A stretch of 64,000 nt of DNA, from contig OMZI01000025.1 in the NCBI GenBank assembly GCA_900315485.1, positions 1,816 to 65,815 on the forward strand. The letters are read 5' to 3'. Source of the stretch: an uncultured Eubacteriales bacterium. Its GTDB lineage: Bacteria > Bacillota > Clostridia > Peptostreptococcales > Anaerovoracaceae. The notes below the pieces were generated by a model, which made no database searches, was not told the origin of the DNA, and saw nothing but the letters and a program-made list of their open reading frames with translations. Below are positions 1 to 50,444 of this stretch, one piece after another. Position 1 is the first letter of the stretch; every line of letters starts with the position of its first letter. The position numbers were made by a program, and so were the translations under genes.

Positions 1-93
1 TACCATCTCGAGGGCCTCATACTGGACGAGCTGGCGCTCAGGCCTGCCATCCGGTTTGAGAAGTTCAAGGAAAATTTCTCTTGCTGTCATCAT
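1..93 (-). CDS. N-terminal fragment of a gene leaving the window; the peptide MMTAREIFLELLKPDGRPERQLVQYEALEMV resembles N-termini of URO-D/MtaA-family methyltransferases
   Basis: ATG ATG at 93..88 (minus strand), preceded by a GGGGG RBS (complement of 101..105). Open to the window edge. Only about 31 codons are visible, so the family call is weak. Confidence 0.35.
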   Translation of the reverse strand, partial: MMTAREIFLELLKPDGRPERQLVQYEALEMV

Positions 94-2959: not shown

Positions 2960-2994
2960 TACTTGGCACTGCGGAATAATTAATAACATGAAGT

Positions 2995-3185: not shown

Positions 3186-3381
3186 AAGTACAGGAGACTT
3201 CCGTCCGCTGCCTGCAGTGCAACCGGCAGACCGGAAAGTTTCCGAGATCACGAGGAATTGGTCGTACAGTTTAATGGAGCCTTGCTCCTTATTTCTGTCA
3301 CCTTTTTTACCGTGAGAAGTAAGAAGGCTTTTTTTATGTTAAGCCCGAAATATTTTCTTGATGGAAAAGGAGAGAAGAAAA

Positions 3382-34847: not shown

Positions 34848-34879
34848 GAAACAGCAGGAAACAGCAACGCAAAAGCAAC

Positions 34880-34917
34880 GCGCATATGGGAGAATAATTA
34901 CCCGTATGCGCTTTTTC
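34880..34917 (+). terminator. Rho-independent terminator ending the cob super-operon
   Basis: GCGCATATGGG-N10-CCCGTATGCGC followed by TTTTTC. Confidence 0.7.
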
Positions 34918-35066
34918 TTGCGGCACTATTATTTCATCAAATACACTGAACATTTTGCATAGACGATATCAATAATTGCGCTGAGAATAATCAGATATAA
35001 TAATTCCATGAATAACGGCGTCAGCCGTATGTTTTTTGATGCTTGCGGGATGTAAGAGGTGTTTAT

Positions 35067-36215
35067 ATGACTTACGAAGAACTGAAAAAAGAAATGGAAC
35101 TGTATCCCGAGACCATGACGGACGGGGAGAGAATGCAGAAATACGCTGCAGGTGAAGAGGTAGACCATATACCATTCTCGATCCAGAGTAATGAAGAGGC
35201 TATGGCCAACATTTTCGGATATACTACTGCTCAGTGGAGAAATGACGTCAAGGTACATATCGATGTCATAAAGAGAAGAAAGGAAGAGTTCAACATCGGC
35301 GGACTCGCTTCCGGACTGAGACTGAGAACAATGGCGCAGGCTGTCGGTTCTGAGATCTACTTCCCTGAAGTAGGTATCGACCGTGTAATCAAGCCTGTTC
35401 TTGAGGACTATGACCAGCTGAAGACTCTCATGAAGGACAACCCTAAGAAGAATCCGGTCTTCCTGTCAGTCCTGCAGAGAGGTATAGACCTCAAGGCAGC
35501 ATTCCCTGAGATGGGTATCGCGATGCCGGTAGCAGGTCCTTTCACCAACGCTTCCTGCATCAGACCGGTAGAGAAGATCCTGAGAGATACAGTAAGGCAC
35601 CCTGAAGAACTTCACGACCTTCTGAAGTGGTGCGTTGACTATACAGTAGCATATGCTGAGATGTTCGCTGATGAATTCGGCGGCGGCGGATGCACCATCT
35701 GCGACCCGGTCAGCTGCTCTGACATCCTCGGCAAGAGAAACTACAAGAAGTTCTCAGAGCCTCATCTGATCGAGCTCATCGAGGGACTGACACAGGCTCT
35801 CGGAAGGAAGCCTGGAATCCACATCTGCGGAAAGACTTCACCTCTGTGGGATGAGATGAGCCAGCTCAAGGTAGCCAACTTCAGCGTAGACAACATGGAA
35901 GACCTCGCAGCTGCAAGAGACATCATGGGACCTCACTTCGGACTCATGGGCAACGTGGCACCTGTAGATGTTATGCTCAACGGGACCATAGACGATGTCA
36001 TCGAGACATGCAAGACCTGCATCATCAAGGGATCCGAGGCAGAGAACGGATATACACTCGGCACAGGATGCCAGGTACCTATCGGAACACCGAGAGAGAA
36101 CTTTGACGCATTTATCTTTGCAACACGCAAGTACGGCAGAGGCGCAAGAAAGGGCTGCCTGCCGCTCGGGATCGCTGAAGAAGCACTGACCGACGTGATC
36201 GAGACCAAAGAATAG
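35067..36215 (+). CDS. URO-D-family (MtaA/MtbA-like) corrinoid methyltransferase, Zn-type
   Basis: AAGAGGTG RBS and ATG at 35067. HxC...C zinc motif (GIHICGK, GTGCQVP). Confidence 0.8.
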   Translation: MTYEELKKEMELYPETMTDGERMQKYAAGEEVDHIPFSIQSNEEAMANIFGYTTAQWRNDVKVHIDVIKRRKEEFNIGGLASGLRLRTMAQAVGSEIYFPEVGIDRVIKPVLEDYDQLKTLMKDNPKKNPVFLSVLQRGIDLKAAFPEMGIAMPVAGPFTNASCIRPVEKILRDTVRHPEELHDLLKWCVDYTVAYAEMFADEFGGGGCTICDPVSCSDILGKRNYKKFSEPHLIELIEGLTQALGRKPGIHICGKTSPLWDEMSQLKVANFSVDNMEDLAAARDIMGPHFGLMGNVAPVDVMLNGTIDDVIETCKTCIIKGSEAENGYTLGTGCQVPIGTPRENFDAFIFATRKYGRGARKGCLPLGIAEEALTDVIETKE

Positions 36216-36293
36216 GCTGCGAGAAATAAACTGAATTCTATTGTTACAAGGAAGCAATTGAAGTTATTATTAAGAAACAGGAGAAAGTAACTT

Positions 36294-36947
36294 ATGGCAA
36301 CTAAAGAAGAATTACTGCAGAAAATGTCTGACTACGTCTTCGAGATGGAAGACGAAGAGATCGCTGATGTATGTGAAGAGTACATCGAAGCAGGATATGA
36401 TCCTCTCGACGGAATCCTTCACGGTCTTGTTGACGGAATGAACCGCGCAAGTGACATGTACGATCAGGAAGAGTACTTCGTAACCGACCTGCTGCTCTGC
36501 TCTGATGCGATGTACGCAGGACTCGACGTTCTGAGACCGCACCTTCCTGAAGATGCAAGCATGGGCGACTCGAAGAAGGCTGTAATCGGCGTTATCGAGG
36601 GCGACACACACGATATCGGCAAGAACCTCGTCAAGATCATGATGGAGACTGCAGGATTCGAGATGTACGACCTCGGAAGAGACGTTCCTATCGACAGCTT
36701 CATTGAGAAGGCGAAGGAAGTCGACGCTGACCTCATCATGATGTCCACACTGATGACAACAACCATGCCTGGCATGAGAACTGTCATCGAGAAGCTCAAA
36801 GAGCAGGGCATCAGAGACAACTTCAAGGTAATGGTAGGCGGAAGCCCGATCTCCATGAAGTATGCTGAGGACATCGGCGCTGACGGCTATTCAAGAAACG
36901 CTGTTGAGGCTGTAGAAGTAGCCAAGAAGCTCTGCGGATTAGAATAA
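36294..36947 (+). CDS. Methyltransferase cognate corrinoid protein (B12-binding_2 plus B12-binding domains)
   Basis: DxHDxG (GDTHDIGKN), SxL (MSTLMTT) and GG (VMVGGSP) motifs. Confidence 0.9.
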   Translation: MATKEELLQKMSDYVFEMEDEEIADVCEEYIEAGYDPLDGILHGLVDGMNRASDMYDQEEYFVTDLLLCSDAMYAGLDVLRPHLPEDASMGDSKKAVIGVIEGDTHDIGKNLVKIMMETAGFEMYDLGRDVPIDSFIEKAKEVDADLIMMSTLMTTTMPGMRTVIEKLKEQGIRDNFKVMVGGSPISMKYAEDIGADGYSRNAVEAVEVAKKLCGLE

Positions 36948-36976
36948 TAAACCATCACCTGGGAGGAAAAGTCATA

Positions 36977-38779
36977 ATGCCGCTTATTACGGTAATGCCG
37001 GAAGGCAAAACTATCGACTATACACCGGGACAGTCGCTCGCTGATCTCATGCTCGGCGCCGGGATCTTCGTTGACAATGCATGCGGAGGCAAAGGCATCT
37101 GCGGAAAGTGCAAAGTCAGGATCATTGAAGGCGATGCCGGTGATATAACGGAAACGGAACTCAGAATACTCAAGCAGGAAGAAGTCGAGTCTGGCATCAG
37201 GCTCGGCTGTCTTGTCAATCCTGAAGGAGACCTCAAAGTCGAGTCTCTCCAGAAGGAGAAGAAGCACGATGTACTCGCATCCGGCTATCTTCCTGACTTT
37301 GATTTCAAAACAGACATCACCAAGATGCCTGTAACCATCCACAAGCCGACACTCGATGACCAGACTCCGTTCGAGGATCAGATCCTCGAGCAGACAGGCG
37401 CCGAAGGAATGGACTACACAGCACTCGGCATCGATTCGATGAAGCCGGGCGAGTATACTGCGATCCTTCATAAGGAAAGAGTAGTAGGGCTCGAGCATGG
37501 GGATACCACAGGCAGGAGATTCGGTGTCGCCATCGATATCGGAACGACCACCGTCGTATGCTCGCTTGTCGACATGAACACCGGCGAAGAACTCGGTCAT
37601 GCTTCCGAGATCAACGCTCAGAAGCATTTTGGCCTCGATGTTCTGACAAGGATCACTTATGAGATCGAACATCCTGAAGACGGCATCATCAAGCTGAGAA
37701 AGGCTATCGTAGGATCGATCAACAAGATGGTCGGCTCCATATGCGAGAGATTCTCAGTCAGCACTGATGAGATCTACGAGATCACAGTCGGCGCCAACTG
37801 CACGATGATGCACATGCTCGTCGGCGTTGACGCCACGCCTATAGGCAAAGCTCCTTTTGCCCCTGTATTCGCGAAGGCGAAGGATATGAGGGCTTCGGAC
37901 ATCGGGCTCAAAGCCGCACCGGGCGCAAGGCTGTACTGCCTGCCGTCGGTCTCCGCATACATCGGAGCAGATATCGTTGCAGGCGCTTACGTCTGCGACC
38001 TCAAGCACCGCAAGGGCAATACCATTTTCATCGATATCGGTACCAACGGAGAGATCGTACTTGCAGCAAACGGCAGACTTATGTCATGCTCATGCGCTGC
38101 GGGACCGGCGCTCGAGGGTATGAACATAAGCTCGGGAATGCGTGCTGCTGAAGGAGCCATCGAAGACATCCACATCGGTGAGGACGGACTGGATCTTAAG
38201 ATCATCGGTGACTGCGAGCCTGCAGGCATCTGCGGCAGCGGTATCCTTACGGTAACCAAAGAGCTTCTGAGGACAGGCATCGTCCGCAAGACCGGTGCTT
38301 TCGTCAAGGCTGACAAGTTCGGACCGGATGACTACAGATCGAAATACATCCTTGTCGATGAAGAGGGCAAGAGGTCGTTTAAGATGACTGACGGCGATGA
38401 GCCACTCTGCATCACGATGGGCGATGTAAGGCAGGTGCAGCTTGCCAAGGGTGCTATCCTTTCCGGATTCATGGCTCTCATGAAGAAGGCCGGCATCGGA
38501 ATGGAGGACCTGGACAGCGTCCTGATCGCAGGACAGTTCGGTGCACATCTGCCTGCAGACAGCATCACAGGAACGGGAATACTGCCGTTCGAGGTCGAGG
38601 ACAAGATAGAGTACGTCGGCAACACATCCAAGACAGGAGCGTATATGGCTCTGATGTCGTCGGATGTCAAGAGAGAGATGGAAGAGCTGGCGCATGAAAT
38701 GGATTATCTTGAGCTGGGTGCGACTGAGAACTATGAGAGACTGCTCTCTGAGTGCCTTATTTTCCCTAGCTTTAAGTAA
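36977..38779 (+). CDS. RACo-type reductive activator of corrinoid enzymes (2Fe-2S ferredoxin domain plus ASKHA ATPase domain)
   Basis: Motifs CGGKGICGKCKV...GC and AIDIGTTTVV / FIDIGTNGEI. Confidence 0.85.
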   Translation: MPLITVMPEGKTIDYTPGQSLADLMLGAGIFVDNACGGKGICGKCKVRIIEGDAGDITETELRILKQEEVESGIRLGCLVNPEGDLKVESLQKEKKHDVLASGYLPDFDFKTDITKMPVTIHKPTLDDQTPFEDQILEQTGAEGMDYTALGIDSMKPGEYTAILHKERVVGLEHGDTTGRRFGVAIDIGTTTVVCSLVDMNTGEELGHASEINAQKHFGLDVLTRITYEIEHPEDGIIKLRKAIVGSINKMVGSICERFSVSTDEIYEITVGANCTMMHMLVGVDATPIGKAPFAPVFAKAKDMRASDIGLKAAPGARLYCLPSVSAYIGADIVAGAYVCDLKHRKGNTIFIDIGTNGEIVLAANGRLMSCSCAAGPALEGMNISSGMRAAEGAIEDIHIGEDGLDLKIIGDCEPAGICGSGILTVTKELLRTGIVRKTGAFVKADKFGPDDYRSKYILVDEEGKRSFKMTDGDEPLCITMGDVRQVQLAKGAILSGFMALMKKAGIGMEDLDSVLIAGQFGAHLPADSITGTGILPFEVEDKIEYVGNTSKTGAYMALMSSDVKREMEELAHEMDYLELGATENYERLLSECLIFPSFK

Positions 38780-38790
38780 AGGATATAAAT

Positions 38791-39816
38791 ATGACTACTG
38801 CTAATGAAAGACTTATAAAGATACTTAAGGGTGAGAGGGTCGACAGGCCTGCATGCATCTGCCCGGGCGGCATGATGAACATGGTCACCAAGGAGCTGCA
38901 GGATGTTGCGGGTGTATACCTTCCTGAGGCTCACACTGATGCTAGGATGATGGCTGACCTCGCGAAGGCCATCGTTGATCAGGGATGCTTTGAGAACTAC
39001 GGCGTTCCGTTCTGCATGTCCGTTGAGGCTGAGGCTCTCGGCGCGACCTGCACGATGGGTTCGCAGCTCTTCGAGCCGCATATCACAGGATATGCAATTG
39101 ACACTGTCGAGGACTATAAGAAGCTGAGCCCGATGGACCTGAATTCGGGAAGGGCCAAAGTCGTTCTCGATGCAATTAAGATCCTCAAGGAGGAGACTCA
39201 CGATGTTCCTATCATCGGAAACCTCGTAGGACCTGTCAGCGTAGCAAGCTCGGTAATGGAGCCGACAAGATATTACAAGCAGCTCCGCCAGAAGAGAGAG
39301 CTGGCTCATGAGTACATGGAGTTCGTTACAGAGCAGCTGATAAGATTCGGTGTTGCCGAGGTCGAGGCCGGTGCCAATGTCATCGTTATCTCGGATCCGA
39401 GCGGCACAGGCGAGATCCTCGGACCTAAGTTCTTCGACGAATACGCTGTAACATACATCAACAAGGTAGTTGATGCTGTTGCTGCAGCAGGCGCAAGGAC
39501 CATCGTCCACATCTGCGGCCAGATGAAGTCGGTATATGACAAGGTCGCCAAGATACACAGCGATGCATTCAGTTTCGATGCTGTTGTATCAATCCGTGAG
39601 GCGAAGAAGCAGCTTCCGGATAAGGTGATCATGGGCAATGTCAGCACATTCGCTATCGAGATGCAGGATGGAAAAACGGTTGAGAAACTTACGAAGAACT
39701 GCTACAACCAGGGCTCAGACATCATCTCACCGGCCTGCGGACTCGGAATGGGCTCGCCGCTTGGCAACGTTCAGGAAGTTCTGAAGACTGTAAAGACATT
39801 CGGGGCTCAGGAGTAA
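38791..39816 (+). CDS. URO-D-family (MtaA-like) corrinoid methyltransferase, Zn-type
   Basis: N-terminus ERLIKILKGERVDRPACICPGG. Zinc motif VHICGQ ... SPACGLG. Confidence 0.85.
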   Translation: MTTANERLIKILKGERVDRPACICPGGMMNMVTKELQDVAGVYLPEAHTDARMMADLAKAIVDQGCFENYGVPFCMSVEAEALGATCTMGSQLFEPHITGYAIDTVEDYKKLSPMDLNSGRAKVVLDAIKILKEETHDVPIIGNLVGPVSVASSVMEPTRYYKQLRQKRELAHEYMEFVTEQLIRFGVAEVEAGANVIVISDPSGTGEILGPKFFDEYAVTYINKVVDAVAAAGARTIVHICGQMKSVYDKVAKIHSDAFSFDAVVSIREAKKQLPDKVIMGNVSTFAIEMQDGKTVEKLTKNCYNQGSDIISPACGLGMGSPLGNVQEVLKTVKTFGAQE

Positions 39817-39862
39817 GTAAATGGCATCATGACTGAAAAGTCAGATACAGAGGAGACTGTGC

Positions 39863-40639
39863 ATGTCAGTAATCGTTGACGGTGACAGACTTATAAGATA
39901 TGAGGATGCTGCGGTGCATTATGTTGTGCCGCAGCATGTCCGGTATATAGAGGACCTTGCTTTCTCGGGTGCCGATCATCTTGCCGTGCTTGAGATCCCT
40001 GACGGCGTGGAGCACATAGGCAATTATGCCTTCAGGATGTGCTACTCTCTGGAGGAGATAAAGCTGCCTCAGAAAGTAGCAGAAGCCGGTGCCGGGCTCT
40101 TCCAGCACTGCTGGAAGCTTAAGAAGATAAGTCTGCCTGAGGGCATCCTTATGATCGGCGGCGAGATGTTCGAAAGCTGCCATGCTCTTCAGACACTCGA
40201 GATACCAGATTCAGTAGAGAAGATCGACAGAACAGCTTTCTCCGGGTGCAGGAACCTCAGAGACATCGTCATCAGTCCGGCAAAACTCAGGATGCTGCCG
40301 CCTGCTGCAAGATACGCCGCCGTACTTACATATATGGAGCGGCGCGCGGAGAACGCGGATGACGCATCACAGGAAGAAACTGAGATGACAGAACGCAGCA
40401 TCATTGATGATTTTGCCCGCGAAAGGCAGGGCAATCTTCTTGACCTTGCGATCAACAGGCGGAATGCAGAGGCTGTGAGATACATGCTGAAGCGCGGACT
40501 TATTGAAGCTGATGCCCTGGCTGATTACCTCGAGAAGTCAGCCGAGAGGAACCGTGTCGAGATCACTGCGCTGATGCTCGAATACGGACAGAAAAAAGAT
40601 AACAAGAGGGACCTCTTTGACGAGGACCCTTTCAGATAA
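39863..40639 (+). CDS. Cytoplasmic leucine-rich-repeat (BspA/LRR_5-type) protein with an ankyrin-like C-terminal segment
   Basis: AGGAG RBS and no signal peptide. About four 23-aa repeats (IPDGVEHIGNYAFRMCYSLEEIKLP, LPEGILMIGGEMFESCHALQTLEIP, IPDSVEKIDRTAFSGCRNLRDIVI). Confidence 0.7.
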   Translation: MSVIVDGDRLIRYEDAAVHYVVPQHVRYIEDLAFSGADHLAVLEIPDGVEHIGNYAFRMCYSLEEIKLPQKVAEAGAGLFQHCWKLKKISLPEGILMIGGEMFESCHALQTLEIPDSVEKIDRTAFSGCRNLRDIVISPAKLRMLPPAARYAAVLTYMERRAENADDASQEETEMTERSIIDDFARERQGNLLDLAINRRNAEAVRYMLKRGLIEADALADYLEKSAERNRVEITALMLEYGQKKDNKRDLFDEDPFR

Positions 40640-40696
40640 ACAGCAGCATTGAGTGCTGCAGCGATTTCAGTCAGTGAAACCGGAGGGGTGGATATA

Positions 40697-41566
40697 ATGG
40701 CAGATATAAGAGAATACAAATGCACTTATTCAAACTCGGTAGGCGTAAGCGCTGAGGTGACTGAGGGACTCGGACTTGAGTTCCCGGATGCATACATGCA
40801 CAGCGGCACGATGCAGACTCTGGCCAAGGCCATCAAGAAGCATGACAACTCGGATTTTGTGCTCCTTCCTTTCTGCAGGACCGTTGAGGCTGAGGCCATG
40901 GGAGCAGTCCTTAACTACGGAGATTCCAATACAGGACCGAGAGCCAAGGACCCGATCTGCTCAAACATGGATGAAGTGCTGGCTCTGCCGGATATTGATT
41001 TCGGCAAAATGCGCATACACGAGGTGCTCGACGCCTGTGCAGCAATGAAGGGTGAGGGAGAGACCGTATGCCTCGAGGTAACAGGCCCATTCACGATTCT
41101 CAATGCGCTGATGGAGCCTAGACTTGTATTCAAGGCGTACCGTAAGGACAGAGAGAAGATGAAGCTGGTCTTCGATAAATTCTCGGAGCAGCTTCTAAGA
41201 TATATTGAGAACGGAAAGAAGGCCGGAGTTGATGTTTTCATTTTCTCCGATTCAGCAGGTGCGCTTGACATACTCGGACCGAAGTTCCTTGCTAATGCGG
41301 TAGAGGACTTCTATGATCCGTTCATGAGAAAAGTCAGCGAGATCATGGATGATTCGTGCATATTCCTGCTGTGCCCTAAGTTCACATATGCTCTTGTTGA
41401 CACAGGTCATGCCGAGCTTAAGGAGTATCAGCTGGAACCAGGCATTGACTTCCTTGAGGCCATGCTGGAGATGAAGGGCAAAGCGAAGATCGGCGGACAG
41501 GTATGCATCAAGAATGTCGGTGTCAAGCTGTCCCACGGAAAGTTCCGCGAGATCGTGATGAAGTAA
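40697..41566 (+). CDS. Short URO-D-like paralogue lacking the HxC zinc motif
   Basis: GGAGGGG RBS and ATG at 40697. URO-D-like core (FCRTVEAEAMGA, VTGPFTILNAL, IFSDSAG), but LLCPKF sits where the paralogues have HICG. 289 aa. Confidence 0.7.
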   Translation: MADIREYKCTYSNSVGVSAEVTEGLGLEFPDAYMHSGTMQTLAKAIKKHDNSDFVLLPFCRTVEAEAMGAVLNYGDSNTGPRAKDPICSNMDEVLALPDIDFGKMRIHEVLDACAAMKGEGETVCLEVTGPFTILNALMEPRLVFKAYRKDREKMKLVFDKFSEQLLRYIENGKKAGVDVFIFSDSAGALDILGPKFLANAVEDFYDPFMRKVSEIMDDSCIFLLCPKFTYALVDTGHAELKEYQLEPGIDFLEAMLEMKGKAKIGGQVCIKNVGVKLSHGKFREIVMK

Positions 41567-41571
41567 GAAGG

Positions 41572-42286
41572 ATGCACAGACTGTATCAGGGAAAGAAGAT
41601 ACTCATAGCATGCTCGATGATCGAAGATGAGATAAATGCTGTCTTCGACTGTTTCGTATACGGGGATATCGAGGTCCGCTGGATGGAGAGAGGGTATCAC
41701 AATGACCCGGATGAGCTGCGCGAAGTGATACAGAACGAGATCAGCAGGGCCGAAGCAGACGGTGCGGACACTGTCATGCTGGCGTACGGATTCTGCGGCA
41801 AGGGAGCGAGCGGATGGCACACAGAGCATGCTGCGCTTGCGATGCCGAGGTTCGATGACTGCTGCAACATGATGCTCTGCACCGGGAAGAGGCAGAAGCG
41901 CAATCTCCTCGAAGCAGGGAATATGTACCTGACCAAAGGGTGGTCGAAGGACGAGGGGGCGCTTCTCTCGATGCTCGAAAGGGCGACGAAGGGGCCTCAA
42001 GGTCATGAAGCTGATGTTTGACTCGTACACCAAGGTCACCGTGATCGATACCGGATGCTATGAACTTCAGCCTGTTGAGGAATACGCTGAGAAGTGCGCG
42101 GACCTTCTTGGCCTGGAACTGTGCAAAGTGCCGGGAAGCAATGAAATAATGAGAAAACTCATCTCAGGCGAATGGGATGAAGACATAATAGTTAAGGAGC
42201 CGGGAGAACCGGTAAGGGACGAAGACTTTGATTTCGGCGGAGAGACCGGAAGCCAGTCTGATCAGCTGTGGAGAAAGACCTTATAG
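41572..42286 (+). pseudogene. DUF1638 protein split by a +1 frameshift (fragments 41572..42021 and about 41990..42286)
   Basis: N-terminal fragment: ILIACSMIEDEI...AYGFCGKG...RFDDCCNMML...YLTKGWS. C-terminal fragment: KVTVIDTGCYE...GEWDEDIIVKEPGE. Removing one G from the GGGG run at 41991..41994 restores a single frame. Confidence 0.6.
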
Positions 42287-42301
42287 GGGCAGGAGGAAAA
42301 A

Positions 42302-43372
42302 ATGACAGTTAGAAAAGACCAGATGACTTCAAATGAGCGTATGGCGGCATATTTCGACGGAAAGGAAGTCGACCGTCTGCCTGCTATGCCGATGATCGAC
42401 TCGGTAGGACCAAGGCTTATAGGCGAGAAGAACAGATTCAAGAGACTTTCAGCTGAGAATCAGGTTCTGGTGCAGAAGAGGGCATATGAGCTGCTCGGAC
42501 TTGACGGTCTTTCGATCGAATACGGTCTTCACGGAATAGGACAGGCCGCCGGAACGATCCTTGGAGACCCTGAGAACACAGCTCCGCCTGTAGTGGAGCA
42601 TGTTCTGAAAGACCTTAAAGATGTAGATAACCTTGATCCTGAATGCGTGCTCAGGAAGAACGATCCGTGGATCGATCTCTGCTGCACTGCATGCGAGATG
42701 CTGGTCGAGCAGATCGGAGATGTGGTCGGAACAAGCGCCAGCCTCACTGGCCCTATGACTGCAGCTTCCAGCATTTATCCTATCTCCAAGCTCCTCATAG
42801 CAACGAGAAAACAGCCTGAGCTCGTTCACAAGCTGCTGAGATTCTCGACTGACGCTCTTATAGCTGTCAGCGAGGAGTTCGCTAAGTGCGGCGTGGACAT
42901 TTTCATCTGCGACCCTGTGGCATCGGGCGATATCATGAGCGAGAAGGCGTACAGAGAACTCGTTTTGCCTTACACCAAGGAGCTTGCACCTGCGATCCAT
43001 AAGCACGGTGTAGCTATGGGCTATCACATCTGCGGCAATACAAACAAGATCACTGAAGCCATGCTTGAATCAGGATGCGACATGCTGAGTGTCGATGTCA
43101 AGGTGCCTCTTCTCAGAGCCAAGGAACTCGGCGGAGATAAGGTTCCTATTATAGGCAACGTAGATCCGATCAACACCATGATGCTGGGAACACCGGAGGA
43201 GGTGCGTGAGGAAGTCATGAGAGATATAGCCGACTGCGCGGACTCACCTAACGGATACATTGTCAGCACCGGCTGCGACATTCCTGTCGATGCGCCTCTA
43301 GAGAATATTTACGCATTCATGGATGCCGTAAGAGAATACGGACCGGTCAGCATCGGACAGAAAAAAGACTGA
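42302..43372 (+). CDS. URO-D-family (MtaA-like) corrinoid methyltransferase, Zn-type
   Basis: N-terminus NERMAAYFDGKEVDRLPAMP. Zinc motif YHICGN ... STGCDIP. Confidence 0.85.
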   Translation: MTVRKDQMTSNERMAAYFDGKEVDRLPAMPMIDSVGPRLIGEKNRFKRLSAENQVLVQKRAYELLGLDGLSIEYGLHGIGQAAGTILGDPENTAPPVVEHVLKDLKDVDNLDPECVLRKNDPWIDLCCTACEMLVEQIGDVVGTSASLTGPMTAASSIYPISKLLIATRKQPELVHKLLRFSTDALIAVSEEFAKCGVDIFICDPVASGDIMSEKAYRELVLPYTKELAPAIHKHGVAMGYHICGNTNKITEAMLESGCDMLSVDVKVPLLRAKELGGDKVPIIGNVDPINTMMLGTPEEVREEVMRDIADCADSPNGYIVSTGCDIPVDAPLENIYAFMDAVREYGPVSIGQKKD

Positions 43373-43436
43373 CGTATTTTTCTGTCCTTTTGGATCAGAA
43401 ACGCTCAAAAGGCGCCACCCGGTGGTGCCTTTTTTC
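43355..43436 (+). terminator. Two tandem rho-independent terminators
   Basis: GGACAGAAAAA-N11-TTTTTCTGTCC followed by TTTT (43355..43391). GGCGCCAC-CCG-GTGGTGCC followed by TTTTTT (43411..43435). Confidence 0.65.
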
Positions 43437-43500: not shown

Positions 43501-43553
43501 AGCATGAGACGCAAAGGAATTTTAGAATAGTAAGGGTACACATGGGAGACAAA

Positions 43554-44333
43554 ATGAATTACGTAGCAATCAACAATGTGTCCTTCGCATACGAAGAAGG
43601 AAAAACAATACTCGACAATATTGATCTCCGGGTTGAGAAGGGGGAATTCATCTGTATTCTCGGACAATCCGGCTGCGGGAAAAGCACGCTGCTCAGACTG
43701 ATCGCAGGTCTTGAGATGCCGACTTCCGGCACGGTCTTTGTTGACGGAGAGGAGGTAAAAGGAGCAAGCCTCGACCGGGGCGTGGTGTTCCAGGACTATG
43801 GCCTCTTTCCGTGGATGACGGCCGGAAAGAACATCCTGCTAGCGCTTGAGCAGAAATACCCAAAGCGCAGGAAGAGTGAACTGAAGAATATAGTTTACGA
43901 AAAGCTCGGAGAGGTCGGGCTGGATAGGTCGGTCTACAGCAAGTATCCGAGGGAGCTTTCCGGGGGCATGCAGCAGAGATGCGCGATAGCTCAGGCTCTG
44001 AGTATAGAGTCTCCGCTGCTTCTGATGGATGAGCCTTTCGGTGCTCTGGATGCAGTGACGAGGGCGGCTCTGCAGGATATGATCAGAAACCTGCTTGAAG
44101 GAGAGAACCGCAAGACAGTATTCTTCGTAACCCATGATGTTGATGAGGCCCTGCTGCTCGGGAGCAGGATCATCGTACTCGGACAGTCACCAAGCCGTAT
44201 CATATATACCTGTGAGATCGATAAGGACAACAGGCCGACAAGGGAGAATCAGTTTACAAACCCGGAATTTCTTAAGATGAGGAATGAACTGATCGGATAC
44301 ATCAACCGCGATGTCGCGGAAAAGCTCAAGTAA
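43554..44333 (+). CDS. ABC ATP-binding protein, NitT/TauT (SsuB/TauB-like) family
   Basis: GGGAGAC RBS. Walker A GQSGCGKST, signature LSGGMQQR, Walker B LLMDEPFGALD. Confidence 0.85.
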   Translation: MNYVAINNVSFAYEEGKTILDNIDLRVEKGEFICILGQSGCGKSTLLRLIAGLEMPTSGTVFVDGEEVKGASLDRGVVFQDYGLFPWMTAGKNILLALEQKYPKRRKSELKNIVYEKLGEVGLDRSVYSKYPRELSGGMQQRCAIAQALSIESPLLLMDEPFGALDAVTRAALQDMIRNLLEGENRKTVFFVTHDVDEALLLGSRIIVLGQSPSRIIYTCEIDKDNRPTRENQFTNPEFLKMRNELIGYINRDVAEKLK

Positions 44334-44426
44334 AGACATTTACTTGCCGCAATTCGGTGATAACCGGGATTTTACCCGGATCACATATAGTATTACCTAA
44401 TATAAGTTAACGGAGGAATTCTAAAG

Positions 44427-45551
44427 ATGAGAAAAAGCAGCAAGATTTTAGCTCTTCTGATCTCTCTTCTCATGGTGCTGTCAATGATGGCAGCATGCGG
44501 AAGTCAGGAAGAGGCGCCTGCAGAAGAGCCTACAGAAGAAACAGCAGAAGCCGGTGAGCTCGGAGCACCTGAGGTAACCACAGTAAAGTGGAACTCGGGT
44601 ACATCCAAGAACGTTCTTATCACTATCGCTAATGAAAAGGGATACTTCGAGGATGAAGGCATCACAATCGAAGAGGTACCTGCAGATGAGAACAACAGCG
44701 CTATGGCACTGCTCGCATCCGGAAAGGTTGACGTAGTATCCAACGCAGGAACAAGTAACCCGCTTGACCAGATCTCCCAGGGCGTTGACCTGACGATCTT
44801 CGGCGGACACATGGTACAGGGTGCTATGCCAATTATCGCAAAGAAGGGAACACAGTGGAACGGCGTTCAGGACTTCATAGGCAAGAAGGTAGTTGCTAAC
44901 ACAAGCTACTTCGCTCTTACAGGTGGCGTTATGAACACCGGAGAGGAAAAGCCGCTTGAGGCTGTTGAGTGGATCGAAGGAATGGATTATCCTGATGCTC
45001 TTGCTATGGTAGAGAGAGGCGAGGCTGACTACGCTCTTCAGGGAACAGGAAACGTTCAGACCTGCAAGGAATCCGGAACAGTTGACATCGTAAGCTGGCA
45101 GGGAGATATCATGCCTGACTACTCCTGCTGCAGAATGGTAGCTCAGACTGATTTCGTAAAGAACAACCCTAACACACTGAAGCACGTAATGGTAGCTCTT
45201 CTGAGAGCTCAGGCTTACTACGAAGCAAACAAGGAAGAGGCTGTTAAGCTCCACGCTGCTGCAACAGAGCAGACAGAGGACTATGTAGCTGCATTCATGC
45301 TTGACGAGCACTACAAGGTAAATGTTGACCCACTGGAAGATTCCGTACTCCGTGCATGGAACATCCTCGATGCAACAGGATTCTTCAAGGATAAGGATGA
45401 CAGTGTAAAGATCGAAGATCACATCAACACTGCACTCTACAAGGAAGCTCTTGACTATGCAGAGGCTACATACGGTGAGGAAGCTCCTGACTTCTACAAG
45501 GCTCAGCAGGAATTCTTTGCAAGCAACAACACCGGAACAGCTAAGGAATAA
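44427..45551 (+). CDS. ABC substrate-binding lipoprotein, NMT1/SsuA/TauA-like
   Basis: Lipobox MMAACGS and an acidic linker. Its position between a TauB-like ATPase and a TauC-like permease supports the call. Confidence 0.75.
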   Translation: MRKSSKILALLISLLMVLSMMAACGSQEEAPAEEPTEETAEAGELGAPEVTTVKWNSGTSKNVLITIANEKGYFEDEGITIEEVPADENNSAMALLASGKVDVVSNAGTSNPLDQISQGVDLTIFGGHMVQGAMPIIAKKGTQWNGVQDFIGKKVVANTSYFALTGGVMNTGEEKPLEAVEWIEGMDYPDALAMVERGEADYALQGTGNVQTCKESGTVDIVSWQGDIMPDYSCCRMVAQTDFVKNNPNTLKHVMVALLRAQAYYEANKEEAVKLHAAATEQTEDYVAAFMLDEHYKVNVDPLEDSVLRAWNILDATGFFKDKDDSVKIEDHINTALYKEALDYAEATYGEEAPDFYKAQQEFFASNNTGTAKE

Positions 45552-45575
45552 TCATTCTGAAACAGACATACTTGT

Positions 45576-46337
45576 ATGAATAAGATCACTGATTTCTTTC
45601 GGAAATACTGGATAACGTTCCTTATCATCGCCATGATGGTCGGAGGATATGTATTTGTCACCGATAATAAGCTGGCAAATCCGTTCTTCTTCCCGCCTGC
45701 TAAGGATATCATCAGCGCGTTCTGGGAATTCAGATACAGAATGCTCGAGAACATGGTCGCTTCCTTCAAACTGATTATTCCGGCTATCTGTATCTCCGCG
45801 GCCATAGCGCTTGCTGTCGGAACGCTTGTGGGAATGAACGCAAGACTGAGGGATGCCCTGCATCCTATCATCTATACGTTCAGCTGCATACCAGCGATTA
45901 TGCTGTCGCCGTTCGTGCTGCTGCTCGCACCGACGATCACTGCCGCTGCGATCTTTCTGATCGTATACGGTACGGTTTGGGCTACCATGTTTGCTACCAT
46001 CACAGGTGTGATGACAGTAGACAAAAGGTACCTGGAGAAGGCAAAGACACTGGAACTTACAGGATTCAGACGGTTCTTTAAAGTAATCCTTCCTGCGGCA
46101 TCTCCTGCTATCTTCGCAGGCTTTACCAATTCGATGAGAAGCTCTTTCGTCATGCTGGTATTTGCGGAGATGAGCGGTGTGCAGAAGGGAATGGGTTTTT
46201 TCGTCAAGAAGTATTCCACTTCCGGAGTGTTTGCCAACACATGGGCAGGATTCATATTCATGGCCTTTGTACTTGTGGTGGTGATGCTCACGTTCGAAAG
46301 GATCAAGAGATACGTCCTGAGATGGACTATGAATTGA
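45576..46337 (+). CDS. ABC permease, SsuC/TauC-like
   Basis: Six TM segments and an EAA-type loop (DKRYLEKAKTLELTGFRRFFKVILPAA). Confidence 0.85.
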   Translation: MNKITDFFRKYWITFLIIAMMVGGYVFVTDNKLANPFFFPPAKDIISAFWEFRYRMLENMVASFKLIIPAICISAAIALAVGTLVGMNARLRDALHPIIYTFSCIPAIMLSPFVLLLAPTITAAAIFLIVYGTVWATMFATITGVMTVDKRYLEKAKTLELTGFRRFFKVILPAASPAIFAGFTNSMRSSFVMLVFAEMSGVQKGMGFFVKKYSTSGVFANTWAGFIFMAFVLVVVMLTFERIKRYVLRWTMN

Positions 46338-46357: not shown

Positions 46358-46386
46358 CAGGCGGGCAATCCAGCCCGCCTGTTTTA
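46358..46386 (+). terminator. Rho-independent terminator
   Basis: CAGGCGGGC-AATCCA-GCCCGCCTG followed by TTTTA. Confidence 0.7.
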
Positions 46387-46402: not shown

Positions 46403-47554
46403 ATGGTTAAATACGTAGACAGAAAAAATACTAACTGCAACAAGTGGGACTCTCTTGAGGGCACATTCGGCGCTGACGGGCTGCTCCCTCTGTGGGTGGC
46501 TGACATGGATTTCCGCATCGATGAGCATATCATTCAGGCGATGCATGATTACATTGAAATGGGGATCCCAGGATATTACAAGGTGCCGGACAGCTATTAC
46601 CAGGCATTCATCGACTGGGAACGTGAAGAACATGGATTTGAGGTAAGCAGGGAATGGATCAGGTTTTCTCCCGGCATAGTTTCCGGCTTTCACATGGCGC
46701 TGCAGGTCCTTACTGAGCCGGGTAACGGCGTGCTGATCTCCACACCTGTATACTATCCTTTCAGCAACGCGATTAATAATAATGACAGGAAACTTATCGC
46801 CTCTGAACTAATCAACAGAGAAGGGCGTTACTATATAGATTTTGACGATTTTGAGTCTAAGATCCGCGATAATGATGTCCGTGCGTTCATTCTCTGCTCG
46901 CCGCACAACCCTGTCTCCAGGGTGTGGTCGGAGGACGAACTGAGGAGGATGCTGGACATATGCAGGAAACACAATGTGGCAGTCATCGCCGATGAGATCC
47001 ATCATGACCTGGTATTCGGTGACAACAGGCATGTCCCTGCTCTGAGCGTATCAGAGAAAGGGGACCGGATAATCATGTTTGCTGCAGCATCGAAGACATT
47101 CAACATCGCAGGTCTGCAGAACTCATTCGTCGTGATCCCTGATGAAGAGCTCAGAGGAGAGTGGGACAGATTCATTGCCGGCCTCAGAATTACCCAGGGC
47201 AATGCTATGGGATATGTAGCAGCAGAGGCTGCGCTCAGGTACGGCAAGGGATGGCTTGAGGAAGTCAGGGAGATCATCAAAGGCAATTACGATTACATAT
47301 GTGAGGCGTTCAGGGAATCGGCACCGGGGGTCGTGATGACACCTCTTGAGGGCACTTATCTCGCCTGGGCCGACTTCGGAGCCTATCTCTCACCGGAAGA
47401 ACTCCAGCCGTTCATGCAGGACAAGTGTAAGCTTGCATTTGACTACGGCCCGTGGTTCGGCGGAGACAGGAGCGGATCTTTCATAAGAATCAATCTCGCA
47501 ACATCGAGAGAGAATATCGAGGAAATGGTCAGAAGGATAGCCGGATCACTGTGA
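46403..47554 (+). CDS. patB: PatB/MalY-family PLP-dependent C-S lyase (cystathionine beta-lyase type)
   Basis: Motifs DRKNTNCNKWD, LPLWVADMDF, SPHNPVSRVW and ASKTFNIAGL. Confidence 0.85.
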   Translation: MVKYVDRKNTNCNKWDSLEGTFGADGLLPLWVADMDFRIDEHIIQAMHDYIEMGIPGYYKVPDSYYQAFIDWEREEHGFEVSREWIRFSPGIVSGFHMALQVLTEPGNGVLISTPVYYPFSNAINNNDRKLIASELINREGRYYIDFDDFESKIRDNDVRAFILCSPHNPVSRVWSEDELRRMLDICRKHNVAVIADEIHHDLVFGDNRHVPALSVSEKGDRIIMFAAASKTFNIAGLQNSFVVIPDEELRGEWDRFIAGLRITQGNAMGYVAAEAALRYGKGWLEEVREIIKGNYDYICEAFRESAPGVVMTPLEGTYLAWADFGAYLSPEELQPFMQDKCKLAFDYGPWFGGDRSGSFIRINLATSRENIEEMVRRIAGSL

Positions 47555-47636
47555 AAGTCGCTATGAAGACAGACAATTATTCCGACAGGCGGTATCAATG
47601 ATTTGTTAACCGGCTTTAAGAATATGTGAAAGGAAG

Positions 47637-47672
47637 AGTGGTGAATTAATGCAGGTTCACCACTTTTTTTAT
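47637..47672 (+). terminator. Rho-independent terminator
   Basis: AGTGGTGAA-N10-TTCACCACT followed by TTTTTTT. Confidence 0.8.
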
Positions 47673-47836
47673 TTACAGTTGGTAAAAAATACAATTATAG
47701 CTTTTGCCTATTTCAGACCTTGCAAGACCTTTGCAAAATAAATAACAAACTGCCGCCGTCTGCGTTATAATACCATGGTACGCGTGTAAAACGTCTGGTT
47801 TTACAGGTACTTATTTTTTGAAAAGGAGTTTTTATC

Positions 47837-49195
47837 ATGGAAGAACAGAGAAGAAGCAGCGGTCTGGCTTTGGTGCCATTCGCAGTGTTCATCGTGATCT
47901 ACCTCGGAGCAGGAATCATTCTACAGTCCAAGGGCGTAGAGATGGCATTCTATCAGTTCCCTGCAGTAGTAGCAATGTTTATCGCAGTACTTGTAGCTTT
48001 CGCTATGAACTACAAGGCAGGAATCAATGAGAATTTCTCAATTTTTGCAAGAGGAGCAGCCAACGAAGACGTTATGGCTATGCTCATGATCTACCTGCTC
48101 GCAGGTGCTTTCTCAGCAGTAGCAGGAGCTATGGGTGGAGTTGACGCAACAGTTAATCTTGGCGTTTCAATCATCCCGGCTTCACTCCTCACAGCAGGCC
48201 TTTTCGTAATCGCAGCATTCCTCGCAACAGCAACAGGTACATCAATGGGTACCATCGGAGCTCTCGTTCCTATCGCTCTGGGTGTTGTTGACAAGGCTGG
48301 ACTCAGCCTTCCGCTCGTAATGGCAGCAGTAGTTTCCGGCGCTATGTTCGGAGACAACCTGTCCATGATCTCAGATACAACTATCGCAGCAACAAGAACT
48401 CAGAAGGTTGAGCTCAAGGATAAGTTCAGAACAAACTTCTGGATCTCACTTCCTGCAGCAGTAGTTACAATCGTACTGCTCATCATCTTCGGAAGACCTG
48501 AAACAGCTCAGGCTCTCGAGGTTGGCGGATATGATATCATCAAGGTTATCCCATACATCCTCGTACTCGTTCTTGCTCTTATCGGCATGAACGTATTCCT
48601 GGTACTGACAATCGGCATCTTCGCTGCAGGAATCATCGGAATGTGCTATGGTGACATCACATTCATGGATTTCGCAGGACAGATCTGGGCTGGTTTCCAG
48701 GGAATGATCGAAGTATTCCTCCTGTCCATGCTCTGCGGTGGTATCGCTGAGATGGCTAAGCACTACGGCGGACTCAACTGGCTCATCGACAAGCTGTCCA
48801 AGACATTCAAGGGCAAGAAGTCAGCACAGGTCGGACTCTCCGTACTTGCAGCTCTGACAGATATGGCTACAGCCAACAACACTGTTGCTATCATCGTTGA
48901 CGGACCTATGGCAAGAGAGATCAGTGAGAAGTATGACATCGACCCTAGAAAGACAGCTTCCATCCTCGACATGTTCACATGCATCATGCAGGGACTCATC
49001 CCTTACGGAGCTCAGTTCCTGGTGGTTGCAAGCATGTGTGAGGGAAGAGTAAGCCCTCTGGATATCATCCCGAAGAACTGGTACCTCTTCCTGCTCGCAG
49101 GATTCGCTATCCTTTCATACTTCGTTCCTTGGTATGAGAAAATCACTCTCAAGGGCAAGTGGGACTGGAAGCAGAACAAGGTAGTAAACGACTAA
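47837..49195 (+). CDS. NhaC-family Na+/H+ antiporter-type carrier
   Basis: 452-aa polytopic protein with NhaC-like sequence features. The family call is by eye only. Confidence 0.7.
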   Translation: MEEQRRSSGLALVPFAVFIVIYLGAGIILQSKGVEMAFYQFPAVVAMFIAVLVAFAMNYKAGINENFSIFARGAANEDVMAMLMIYLLAGAFSAVAGAMGGVDATVNLGVSIIPASLLTAGLFVIAAFLATATGTSMGTIGALVPIALGVVDKAGLSLPLVMAAVVSGAMFGDNLSMISDTTIAATRTQKVELKDKFRTNFWISLPAAVVTIVLLIIFGRPETAQALEVGGYDIIKVIPYILVLVLALIGMNVFLVLTIGIFAAGIIGMCYGDITFMDFAGQIWAGFQGMIEVFLLSMLCGGIAEMAKHYGGLNWLIDKLSKTFKGKKSAQVGLSVLAALTDMATANNTVAIIVDGPMAREISEKYDIDPRKTASILDMFTCIMQGLIPYGAQFLVVASMCEGRVSPLDIIPKNWYLFLLAGFAILSYFVPWYEKITLKGKWDWKQNKVVND

Positions 49196-49337: not shown

Positions 49338-50444
49338 ATGAATATTATTGAACAGTATGGTCACGGACTTGAGATACCTAAGGATGAGCTGACCGCGATC
49401 GAAAGAGACAGACTTCTGAGCGAGGGCAAGGAAGTAGACCGCATCATGTGCTGCATCGATACAGGAGAGACGCTCGCTCCGATGATCGGACTCAAGGTAA
49501 AGGACTACTATTTTTCATCAGAGAAGATGCTCGAACTCGAGCAGTACATATATGACACTTTCCATTCAGACGGAGCAGGACTTTCGACAACTCTCCGCGG
49601 AATGGCAGAGGCTATGGGATCCAAGATCAAGTACTACGATCACAACATCGCACAGCTTGAGACACCGGCTCTTGCAAGTCTCGATGACGTCGATCAGGCA
49701 AAGCTCGTAGATGTTGACAAGGACGGAAGACTTCCGATCATCCTCAAGGGTCTCAAGATGGTCAAGGAGAACCTCGGCGACAAGGTCCCTGTAAGCGGAA
49801 CCGTTACCGGTCCTTTCACCATCGCTGCAATGGTAGTAGGAACAGAGAACCTTCTGATCGGAATGATCAAGAAGCCTGACAAGGTCAAGCAGCTGATGGA
49901 GGTCATCACAGAGAACAACGAGAGATACATCGCAAGGATGCTCGAGATGGGAGTAGGCGTAGGATTCGCTGATCCTGTCAGCACCACTTCACTTCTGAGA
50001 GTCAAGCAGTACCGCGAGTTCTCACTGCCGTACTTCCAGCACAATGTTGACTTCATCAAGAAGAACGGCGGCGGATGCGGACTTCACATCTGCGGCGGTT
50101 CCCGCAAGCTGTGGGAAGACCTCAACAATACAGGCATCGGATGCTTCGGACTCGACAACATTGAGGATCTCGAAGAAGCCAAGGAAGTCCTCGGACCTCA
50201 CATGGCTATCCAGGGCAATGTTCCTCCTGTAGATGTGATCAGGCTCGGCACACCTCAGGACGTACTGAGAGCAAGCAAGGAGTGCATCCGCAAGGCATGG
50301 GATTCGCCTAACGGATTCACACTGACATCAGGCTGCCAGACACCGATGGATACACCGGCTGAGAACCTTCAGGCCATGATGGATGCAGCAAGAATCTTCG
50401 GAAGATATCCGATCGACACAGACCTTCTGAACACGGAAATGTAG
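49338..50444 (+). CDS. URO-D-family (MtaA-like) corrinoid methyltransferase, Zn-type
   Basis: Zinc motif LHICGG ... TSGCQTP. 368 aa. Confidence 0.85.
   Translation: MNIIEQYGHGLEIPKDELTAIERDRLLSEGKEVDRIMCCIDTGETLAPMIGLKVKDYYFSSEKMLELEQYIYDTFHSDGAGLSTTLRGMAEAMGSKIKYYDHNIAQLETPALASLDDVDQAKLVDVDKDGRLPIILKGLKMVKENLGDKVPVSGTVTGPFTIAAMVVGTENLLIGMIKKPDKVKQLMEVITENNERYIARMLEMGVGVGFADPVSTTSLLRVKQYREFSLPYFQHNVDFIKKNGGGCGLHICGGSRKLWEDLNNTGIGCFGLDNIEDLEEAKEVLGPHMAIQGNVPPVDVIRLGTPQDVLRASKECIRKAWDSPNGFTLTSGCQTPMDTPAENLQAMMDAARIFGRYPIDTDLLNTEM

Follow-up and report, generated by a model that had tools for sequence, protein, structure and literature searches.

The closest described counterparts of the gene island analysed here, at 35067-43372 (+) of a 64-kb window from a rumen Anaerovoracaceae ('Mogibacterium'-like) bacterium (the window being the whole stretch of DNA under study), are the type 1 clusters of mlp genes (MGC) described by Kountz & Balskus (bioRxiv 2023; PMC10418091), whose substrates and methyl acceptor are still unproven. 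An MGC combines at least two Mlps with a corrinoid protein (CP) and a Ram activase, encoded co-directionally with gaps below 2 kb and with no tetrahydrofolate methylase within 20 kb (PMC10418091). What sets type 1 apart is that both an Mlp2-clade and an Mlp3-clade protein are encoded (PMC10418091). In C. ljungdahlii, the order is Mlp1-Mlp2-CP-Mlp3-RACE, Mlp3 being the lineage nearest MtbA (PMC10418091). The Mlps carry a His-Cys-Cys zinc site, with 'several Mlps1' excepted, and this ligand set is tied to sulfur (S) or selenium (Se) substrates, whereas in the superfamily's O-methyltransferases carboxylates or non-ligands take the place of one or both cysteines (PMC10418091). In vitro, ClMlp2 slowly transfers the methyl group of methylcobalamin to selenide, and more slowly still to sulfide (PMC10418091). 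The sdm genes of M. voltae are required for dimethylselenide use (PMC10418091; Niess & Klein 2004), and a homologous operon of M. maripaludis is up 5.6-7.8 log2-fold under selenium starvation (PMC11097638).

Judging from its sequence, we consider it likely that the island is a type 1 MGC that moves methyl groups on or off sulfur or selenium compounds, and not an O-demethylation system. Methyl-S/Se substrates are proposed because the His-Cys-Cys set is invariant in two methyltransferase lineages and because a PatB lyase and sulfonate- or methionine-type transporters lie nearby. The window holds five URO-D methyltransferase genes, MT_A to MT_E. Pfam assignments bore out the gene order of the original prediction for the island (MT_A, corrinoid protein, RACo, MT_B, LRR protein, MT_C, DUF1638, MT_D), which is given below together with MT_E.

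35067..36215, + strand: MT_A (Pfam URO-D, E 4e-49; NCBIfam mtaA_cmuA 143.7 bits, below cutoff); Mlp2-like, His-Cys-Cys
36294..36947, + strand: corrinoid carrier protein, CP (Pfam B12-binding_2 and B12-binding); DTHDIG (DxHxxG) and STL motifs
36977..38779, + strand: RACo/Ram-type activase (Pfam Fer2, Raco_middle and RACo_C_ter; NCBIfam AcsV-like, 423 bits)
38791..39816, + strand: MT_B (Pfam URO-D, 2e-76; NCBIfam PRK06252 404.5 bits, cutoff 244); Mlp3-like, His-Cys-Cys
39863..40639, + strand: LRR protein, BspA-type LRR_5 (Pfam LRR_5, 2e-28); cytoplasmic, helical C-terminal half
40697..41566, + strand: MT_C (Pfam URO-D, 2e-18, profile positions 40-282 only), 289 aa; Mlp1-like
41572..42286, + strand: DUF1638 gene, disrupted (Pfam DUF1638 profile positions 1-91 and 110-161 in two frames, 41572-42021 and 42005-42286)
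42302..43372, + strand: MT_D (Pfam URO-D, 1e-67); Mlp2-like, His-Cys-Cys, of a subfamily common to most other clusters
49338..50444, + strand: MT_E (Pfam URO-D, 5e-74); Mlp2-like, His-Cys-Cys, subfamily 2 of cluster ADE

The island genes all lie on the + strand, as do nearly all long open reading frames (ORFs) of the window, with intergenic spacings of 5-79 nt and ribosome-binding sites ahead of the chosen starts. The island is a real, tightly packed B12-dependent methyl-transfer operon. All four operational features of an MGC are present in it, and the intervening LRR and DUF1638 genes are co-directional as well.

Searching species-representative genomes with RACo as the query yielded 80 related loci. 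Single-linkage clustering of their URO-D ORFs (n=224) with the window proteins and MtaA produced exactly three groups, stable between 160 and 200 bits: an A/D/E type (97 members), a B type including MtaA (68) and a C type (63). His-Cys-Cys occupies the MtaA zinc-ligand columns in 96/97 members of the A/D/E group and in 68/68 of the B group. Judged by this clustering, the URO-D set of the island consists of three old lineages (Mlp1-, Mlp2- and Mlp3-like) and not of equivalent paralogues. MT_A, MT_D and MT_E are mutually ~31% identical (BLAST E 1e-47 to 1e-55), and MT_B shares 21-26% identity with them. MT_D is 46-50% identical to the gene in the Mlp2 position of the Desulfosporosinus, Terrisporobacter and Peptostreptococcus loci. 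To have three Mlp2-type copies, here spread over 15 kb, is at the upper end of what the loci show, 6/74 of them carrying three. Six paralogues had been counted originally; the five URO-D genes named above are real, but they belong to distinct lineages and are not interchangeable, and the remaining one is an unrelated fusion at the left edge of the window.

MtaA (4AY7) is the closest solved structure for all five proteins, scoring 160 bits for MT_B, 100 for MT_E, 94 for MT_D, 54 for MT_A and 47 for the shorter MT_C, so that the likeness originally drawn to archaeal MtaA/MtbA/MtsA holds. In the HMMER alignment of MT_B with MtaA, which covers 329 residues, HICG and ACG fall on the MtaA zinc ligands. 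MT_B is also the sole paralogue above any curated NCBIfam cutoff, that of PRK06252, a broad 'methylcobalamin:CoM methyltransferase' subfamily model (CoM, coenzyme M). At the equivalog level, no paralogue qualifies (MtaA_Meth 96-212 bits, cutoff 400; MtbA 51-209 bits, cutoff 600). By these scores and this alignment, MT_B is the paralogue closest to the archaeal methylcobamide:CoM methyltransferases. In MtaA-type enzymes, the His-Cys-Cys zinc activates a thiol(ate); MT_A, MT_B, MT_D and MT_E all have this set, while the Mlp1-like cluster has lost it. The Methanosarcina MtaA/MtbA/MtsA systems share with the island the fold, the His-x-Cys...Cys zinc site, a corrinoid protein that is a chain of its own and an activase that uses ATP. 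The island differs in being bacterial, with nothing to indicate CoM, in having no MtaB/MtmB/MtbB/MttB partner, and in its RACo activase with a [2Fe-2S] domain.

Corrinoid proteins hold B12 via a His-on DxHxxG site, and the CP of the island carries this motif; it scores 207.6 bits on TIGR02370, just under the curated cutoff of 215.3. RACo-type proteins perform the ATP-dependent reduction of Co(II) to Co(I). The RACo of the island has an N-terminal [2Fe-2S] ferredoxin domain with Cys36/42/45/78.

MT_C, whose nearest paralogue is mainly MT_B (31% identity over 184 aa), had been described as having no Zn motif. Its His and C-terminal Cys are indeed gone, but the central Cys (LCPK) is kept, as it is in 63/63 members of the C-type group; the His is lost in 58/63, and the third Cys and the C-terminal segment in 63/63. 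The database holds 240 homologues of MT_C, and nearly all of the 120 matches listed are 285-301 aa long. C9, C60, the LCPK motif and Q.CIKN are invariant in the family. The AlphaFold (AF2) model of MT_C has a pLDDT of 94 and MtaA as its best fold match. We therefore read MT_C as a conserved third family and not as a decayed copy, given its homologues, its invariant residues and its confident model. A recent pseudogene was ruled out on the same grounds. The model also matches UroD and ApcE (Foldseek E 2e-5, TM 0.48). ApcE, the epsilon subunit of acetophenone carboxylase (~290 aa), is likewise a short UroD-like chain inside a larger enzyme complex.

Six type 1 MGC strains listed in PMC10418091 (Supplement 3) carry syntenic orthologues of the island proteins, at 36-74% identity: F. 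umbilicata DSM 103426, P. porci, T. mayombei DSM 6539, D. hippei, D. lacus and Desulfosporosinus sp. I2. Their loci each contain a single gene of the C type, of the A/D/E type (MT_D subfamily) and of the B type in addition to CP and RACo, and the Desulfosporosinus loci show the published order Mlp1-Mlp2-CP-Mlp3-RACE. The listed strains among the related loci are all of the selenium-associated type in the classification of PMC10418091, where a leaf 'Mlp2_Mogibacterium_sp_BX12' and Eubacterium pyruvativorans i6, an Anaerovoracaceae isolate from the rumen, already appear. The cluster architecture has already been described, and the island is probably a further member with lineage-specific additions, not a new kind of system. 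It shares with the type 1 MGC the three MtaA/MtbA-like lineages, the CP, the Ram/RACE activase, co-directionality, no folate methylase nearby and an origin in Firmicutes anaerobes, as well as sulfur genes in the neighbourhood (PatB, Met transporters, sulfurtransferases, double-cubane protein). It differs in its three Mlp2-type copies, which belong to distinct subfamilies and two of which are paired with their own transporters, in having DUF1638 and LRR_5 genes inside the operon, in the order Mlp2-CP-RACE-Mlp3-LRR-Mlp1-DUF1638-Mlp2, and in following a complete B12 cluster. The SdmABC proteins of Methanococcus voltae and M. maripaludis, counted as type 1 MGC proteins in PMC10418091, likewise combine a corrinoid protein with MtaA-like methyltransferases. 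They differ in being archaeal, with CoM available as acceptor, and in their selenium link; no selenium genes are visible in the 64 kb of the window.

The nearest RACo loci (77-98% identity) come from rumen or ruminant-gut metagenome-assembled genomes named Anaerovoracaceae or 'Mogibacterium sp.'. RACo relatives at 50-68% occur in Lachnospiraceae (Dorea, Faecalicatena, Faecalimonas, Sporofaciens), Terrisporobacter, Peptostreptococcus porci, Sedimentibacter, Desulfosporosinus and Coriobacteriia. The Anaerovoracaceae loci share one fixed order, MT_A-CP-RACo-MT_B-LRR-MT_C-DUF1638; MT_D is present or absent, and the NhaC/MT_E pair usually comes next. The core kept across all taxa comprises CP, the MT_B-like gene, RACo and the MT_C-like gene, plus one to three MT_A/D/E-like genes.

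Between the island and MT_E, the window encodes the following features.

43542..46337, + strand: NitT/TauT-type ABC importer, comprising ATPase, SsuA/TauA-like binding protein and permease (Pfam ABC_tran, NMT1, BPD_transp_1)
46403..47554, + strand: PLP-dependent C-S lyase of the PatB family rather than a simple aminotransferase (TIGR04350 399.7 bits, cutoff 340)
47837..49195, + strand: NhaC-family membrane transporter, paired with MT_E (Pfam Na_H_antiporter)

The SsuA-like binding protein scores 83.5 bits on NCBIfam SsuA_fam, under every curated cutoff, and similar ABC importers flank clusters in three other loci (L052, L056, L078). A strong terminator (46358-46381) follows the importer, and the PatB gene begins 22 nt later. 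From its family assignment, the PatB lyase could free methanethiol or methylselenol from S- or Se-methylcysteine. A gene pair of the NhaC/MT_E type recurs in 12/15 cases (L015, L023, L046, L077 and others) and is inverted in Sedimentibacter; this pairing suggests that the NhaC carrier imports the substrate of the MT_E-type enzyme. More generally, the Mlp2-type subfamilies have different neighbours, the MT_A type adjoining CP/RACo and the MT_E type an NhaC carrier, while another subfamily couples to a MetNIQ-type ABC transporter (NIL-domain ATPase, permease, NlpA lipoprotein) plus Mem_trans by Pfam (L079, L088, L090, L091, L018, L019, L033, L036). The MetNIQ-coupled subfamily points to methionine-like substrates, as far as genomic context can tell. 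The proposal of one methyltransferase per substrate thus gains some support, since Mlp2-type subfamilies pair with different transporters. Accessory genes beside the related clusters include CobW/COG0523 GTPases (13 loci), a single HGD-D protein of the double-cubane type (11) and TusA (4), a recurrence that would be consistent with zinc delivery and S/Se trafficking. Accessory genes of this sort are likewise described in PMC10418091.

MT_E is followed by an Fe-S flavoprotein of 953 aa (50691-53552, +) with Fer4 and GltD-like Fer4_20/Pyr_redox_2 domains and ~290 N-terminal residues without a family. It was considered as a selenium marker and rejected, because YgfK (256 bits, cutoff 835) and 'diclust_near_Sec' (147 bits, cutoff 530) indicate a domain-level likeness only.

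Pfam revealed no pterin-binding methyltransferase II (MT-II) anywhere in the 64-kb window, and no MTTB, MtmB, MtbB or MtaB substrate-specific methyltransferase I (MT-I) within it. Pfam scans and the precomputed Pfam annotation of 100%-identical contigs showed no Pterin_bind, MtrH, MttB or MtaB family member at 4920-64000. That the window encodes neither a folate-type MT-II nor an MttB-family gene had been noted originally, and this stands for the range 4920-64000. The MT-II had also been regarded as something missing, but its absence belongs to the published definition of the type 1 MGC (PMC10418091).

The original prediction placed a DUF1638 gene in the island; it is present, but split in two frames by a 17-nt deletion. 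The deleted 17 nt (CAGGAGAGGTATGGAGA) would lie between 41985 and 41986, as seen in the alignment to one of the otherwise identical contigs (L001). Apart from this deletion, public contigs from rumen metagenomes (ERZ28614472 scaffold_600 and others) match the window at 100.000% identity. An intact DUF1638 product of 243 aa (P0121) occurs on 11 public contigs, and neither of the two shortened products, both of which were looked up, is on record in any public contig. With the deletion as the sole difference over 64 kb and the shortened products unrecorded, it is either a lesion of very recent origin or an artefact of assembly. DUF1638 is present in 24 related loci (Anaerovoracaceae, Coriobacteriia) and adjoins the Mlp1-like gene in 19/24. 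Its predicted structure has a pLDDT of 87 and two alpha/beta lobes. An attempt to assign a function by fold failed, no PDB match exceeding a TM-score of 0.33 despite the confident model. A full-text search for DUF1638 did not return PMC10418091, so the family goes unmentioned in the main text there.

In Phaeobacter inhibens, DUF1638 is cofit with a split methionine synthase (MetH) and phylogenetically coupled to RamA-like activases (PMC5764234), and in Ruegeria pomeroyi on N-osmolytes it is more abundant, as is RamA (PMC12478193). These split MetH systems resemble our locus in having DUF1638 next to a corrinoid protein and functionally tied to a RamA/RACo-type activase, and in having a free-standing homocysteine methyltransferase piece in the genomic surroundings (PMC5764234, PMC12478193). 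They differ in their donor, which is methyl-tetrahydrofolate or glycine betaine via pterin-binding/MtgB proteins, and in having no URO-D methyltransferases.

Such a homocysteine methyltransferase piece lies near the left edge of the window, facing a second gene that had been taken for a further paralogue.

1..90, - strand: URO-D and corrinoid-domain fusion, first 30 codons only (full 591-aa gene on the identical contig L011, 172-1947)
801..2045, + strand: homocysteine S-methyltransferase domain protein, MetH-derived (Pfam S-methyl_trans, 2e-74)

The left-edge gene does encode a URO-D protein, but only 30 of its codons are in the window, and the full product (Pfam URO-D, B12-binding_2, B12-binding) brings its own B12 domain, is 16-19% identical to the island methyltransferases and has H-D-H at the zinc positions. 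Its relatives by sequence in the PDB are for the B12 domain only. By these sequence features, the fusion is different in kind and lies outside the Mlp lineages. Pfam agreed with the original prediction that the 801 protein is a homocysteine methyltransferase domain. It aligns to residues 16-421 of T. maritima MetH(1-566) and then ends, so that no more than the initial third of the folate barrel is retained; this stub (1660-2045), 33 kb from the island, is the only folate-domain remnant in the window. The 801-2045 protein is a candidate folate-independent methyl acceptor enzyme. A DUF2284 gene (131-691, -) comes after the fusion, the 801-2045 gene faces the fusion, and this divergent trio is complete on L011 (172-3902). 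Together, the fusion, DUF2284 and the MetH fragment look like a separate folate-independent methyl-to-homocysteine module.

If the island works on sulfur or selenium compounds, RACo would reduce the cobalt of the carrier to Co(I) using ATP and its [2Fe-2S] domain, and DUF1638, by genetic analogy only, might aid this reactivation step. MT_A, MT_D and MT_E would each load a methyl group from a different methyl-S/Se compound onto Co(I). Candidate donors are methanethiol/methylselenol, dimethyl (seleno)sulfide and S- or Se-methyl amino acids, each of which may be brought in by its own transporter or freed by the PatB C-S lyase. MT_B would be the common unloading enzyme, passing the methyl group of CH3-Co(III) to a thiol acceptor (sulfide, homocysteine) and not to tetrahydrofolate, and MT_C, with its degenerate metal site, could provide a fourth specificity or act as a non-catalytic partner. 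We infer this division, in which the variable Mlp2 loads and the invariant Mlp3 unloads, from the subfamily-specific neighbours, from the SsuA-type importer with PatB, and from the recurrence of CobW, HGD-D and TusA. The net effect would be S/Se salvage, possibly with transfer of methyl groups into methionine, and not an energy-yielding O-demethylation. We agree with the original prediction that the substrates of the paralogues are unproven.

Type 1 mlp clusters are widespread in gut, rumen and sediment anaerobes, which makes this rumen example useful but not surprising, and the current picture of corrinoid methyl transfer is unchanged. The differently partnered Mlp2 copies (CP-adjacent, optional and NhaC-paired), together with the C-S lyase and the importer, lead to concrete substrate candidates, namely S-/Se-methylcysteine, methanethiol/methylselenol and methionine-like compounds. 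DUF1638, genetically tied to RamA-type B12 reactivation, joins the accessory genes known for these clusters. A system of this kind could influence how much methanethiol and dimethyl sulfide forms in the rumen, as well as selenium availability and the methionine economy there.

Several points weigh against assigning the island to sulfur and selenium methyl transfer. The reading of MT_C as Mlp1-like, of MT_A, MT_D and MT_E as Mlp2-like and of MT_B as Mlp3-like draws on synteny, clustering and strain identity, and not on comparison with the ClMlp1-3 sequences. ClMlp2 itself is very slow, at 0.78 per min with free methylcobalamin (PMC10418091). No selenium gene is visible in the 64-kb window, and the 953-aa Fe-S flavoprotein fails the YgfK and 'near-Sec' models. 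Two Dorea loci (L059/L060) have an insertion at ~6.1-8.9 kb, between CP and the Mlp3-like gene, which encodes a non-Pyl MttB homologue and an EamA transporter, so that Mlp3 and RACo there may also serve an N-methyl donor. Finally, with DUF1638 broken in this copy, the local operon may be impaired. A more far-reaching version of the proposal is unlikely, namely that the island, taken with its flanks, is a full methyl-salvage circuit independent of folate, of a sort not yet demonstrated in any organism. In it, transporter-coupled Mlp2 enzymes and the PatB lyase would move methyl groups of imported methyl-S/Se compounds onto CP, Mlp3 or the 801-2045 fragment would return them to homocysteine, and DUF1638 and Mlp1, neighbours in 19/24 loci with DUF1638, would be obligatory non-catalytic partners of RACo and CP.

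Catabolic methylotrophy, in which Mlp3 or Mlp1 would be an unrecognised methyl-corrinoid:tetrahydrofolate methyltransferase feeding methyl groups into C1 metabolism, was left open by Kountz & Balskus (PMC10418091), and we consider it quite improbable here. The strict conservation of Mlp1 despite the loss of its thiol-type zinc site would suit it, as would the MttB-family MT-I beside an Mlp3-like gene in Dorea and the fact that several carriers are acetogens. Folate methylation is not known for any protein of the UroD superfamily, however, and Mlp3 retains the full MtaA-type thiol-activating site. Moreover, many carriers are non-acetogenic amino-acid fermenters, and some genomes with the cluster have no folate methylase (PMC10418091).

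An O-demethylase repertoire, with each URO-D protein acting as MT-I for a different lignin-derived phenyl methyl ether and the methyl group reaching tetrahydrofolate through an MT-II encoded elsewhere, appears very doubtful. In its favour, methoxy-aromatics abound in the rumen, Terrisporobacter vanillatitrophus has a RACo relative, and OdmB, VdmB, MtvB and MtoB are also UroD-superfamily proteins working with a corrinoid protein and an activase. The bacterial O-demethylase and chloromethane systems Odm, Vdm, Mtv, Mto and CdmBCA (PMC13222342) resemble the island in their basic set of MT-I, corrinoid protein and activase, but they have a pterin-type MT-II (OdmD, MtvA, CdmA) and an MT-I whose metal site is absent or of the O-type, and the island has neither. 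MtqA is grouped with the MT-IIs of the MtvA/AcsE/MetH type (PMC13222342). The full-length methyltransferases, MT_E included, keep His-Cys-Cys and score 54-160 bits with MtaA, but only 0-36 bits are reached between the window proteins and CdmB, an O-demethylase-related protein used as a stand-in for OdmB/VdmB; this weakens the analogy originally made with O-demethylase and methylamine systems. A folate MT-II is absent from the window and also across the cluster family, including genomes without any folate methylase (PMC10418091). The neighbours are enzymes and transporters for sulfur compounds, with no aromatic-acid transporters among them. Methyl-thioethers, one of the substrate types suggested originally, remain a good guess, while the other, methoxylated aromatics, is disfavoured by the zinc set, the scores, the absence of MT-II and the neighbours.

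An exchange of CoM with rumen methanogens, in which MT_B would methylate or demethylate CoM or a mercapto-sulfonate imported by the SsuA/TauA-type transporter, is extremely improbable. MT_B does pass the 'methylcobalamin:coenzyme M methyltransferase' model (404 bits, cutoff 244), a sulfonate-type importer follows the island, with similar ones in three other gut lineages, and the habitat holds CoM producers. The binding protein nevertheless stays below all curated cutoffs, several close relatives have the cluster but not the transporter (L015, L023), methanogen-free habitats too are widely populated by the cluster family, and nothing here indicates CoM use. That the cluster is decaying and non-functional in this genome, as the split of DUF1638 by a 17-nt deletion and the lack of canonical ligands and last barrel elements in MT_C might imply, is scarcely credible, since the rest of the 64 kb is 100.000% identical to contigs with an intact DUF1638 (which makes the deletion one very recent event or a mistake of assembly), the MT_C family of 285-295 aa is conserved with invariant residues and a confident fold, and all other ORFs are intact.

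The LRR_5 protein has no signal peptide. Its gene separates the Mlp3-like gene from the Mlp1-like one in 24 related loci, every Anaerovoracaceae locus among them, and it diverges much faster (47-95% identity) than its operon neighbours (75-99%). Weak LRR_5 relatives are found near two Dorea/Coriobacteriaceae clusters.

The operon boundaries carry the following elements.

34880..34918, + strand: left terminator, 11-bp stem, 10-nt loop and U-run (-22.5 kcal/mol, z -4.15; 0/200 shuffles fold equally well)
34947..34976, + strand: weak promoter-like site TGAACA-18-AATAAT, 5' of MT_A (consensus scan alone, 9/12 matches)
43407..43436, + strand: right terminator, 12-bp GC-rich stem followed by UUUUUU (-19.5 kcal/mol, z -2.9)

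Both terminators proposed to bound the island are genuine hairpins with a U-run. A consensus terminator scanner overlooked them owing to its loop-length limits, and they were found by folding against shuffles. The left one closes the upstream AAA/DUF2201 unit. In the ~80-nt leader of MT_A, a hairpin with a 5-bp stem is followed by TTTTTT (35015-35040, +), its stability being that of shuffled sequence (z 0.14).

The island comes directly after a full anaerobic B12 biosynthesis pathway at ~2-31 kb. A cobalamin riboswitch (2981-3194, +; 101.7 bits) precedes the CbiK, transport and B12 genes and is the sole Rfam match in the window at the gathering score. Permissive Rfam scans of the regions 5' of MT_A (34840-35080) and of NhaC/MT_E (47540-47850) gave chance-level matches only, with no riboswitch or leader RNA. 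Between the B12 genes and the island lie a DUF2201 protein (31965-33302, +), with metallopeptidase-like and VWA-like parts, and a MoxR-type AAA ATPase (33345-34847, +), which may form a chelatase-like or cofactor-loading chaperone pair. The same DUF2201/MoxR AAA pair is found directly 5' of a Dorea cluster (L050).

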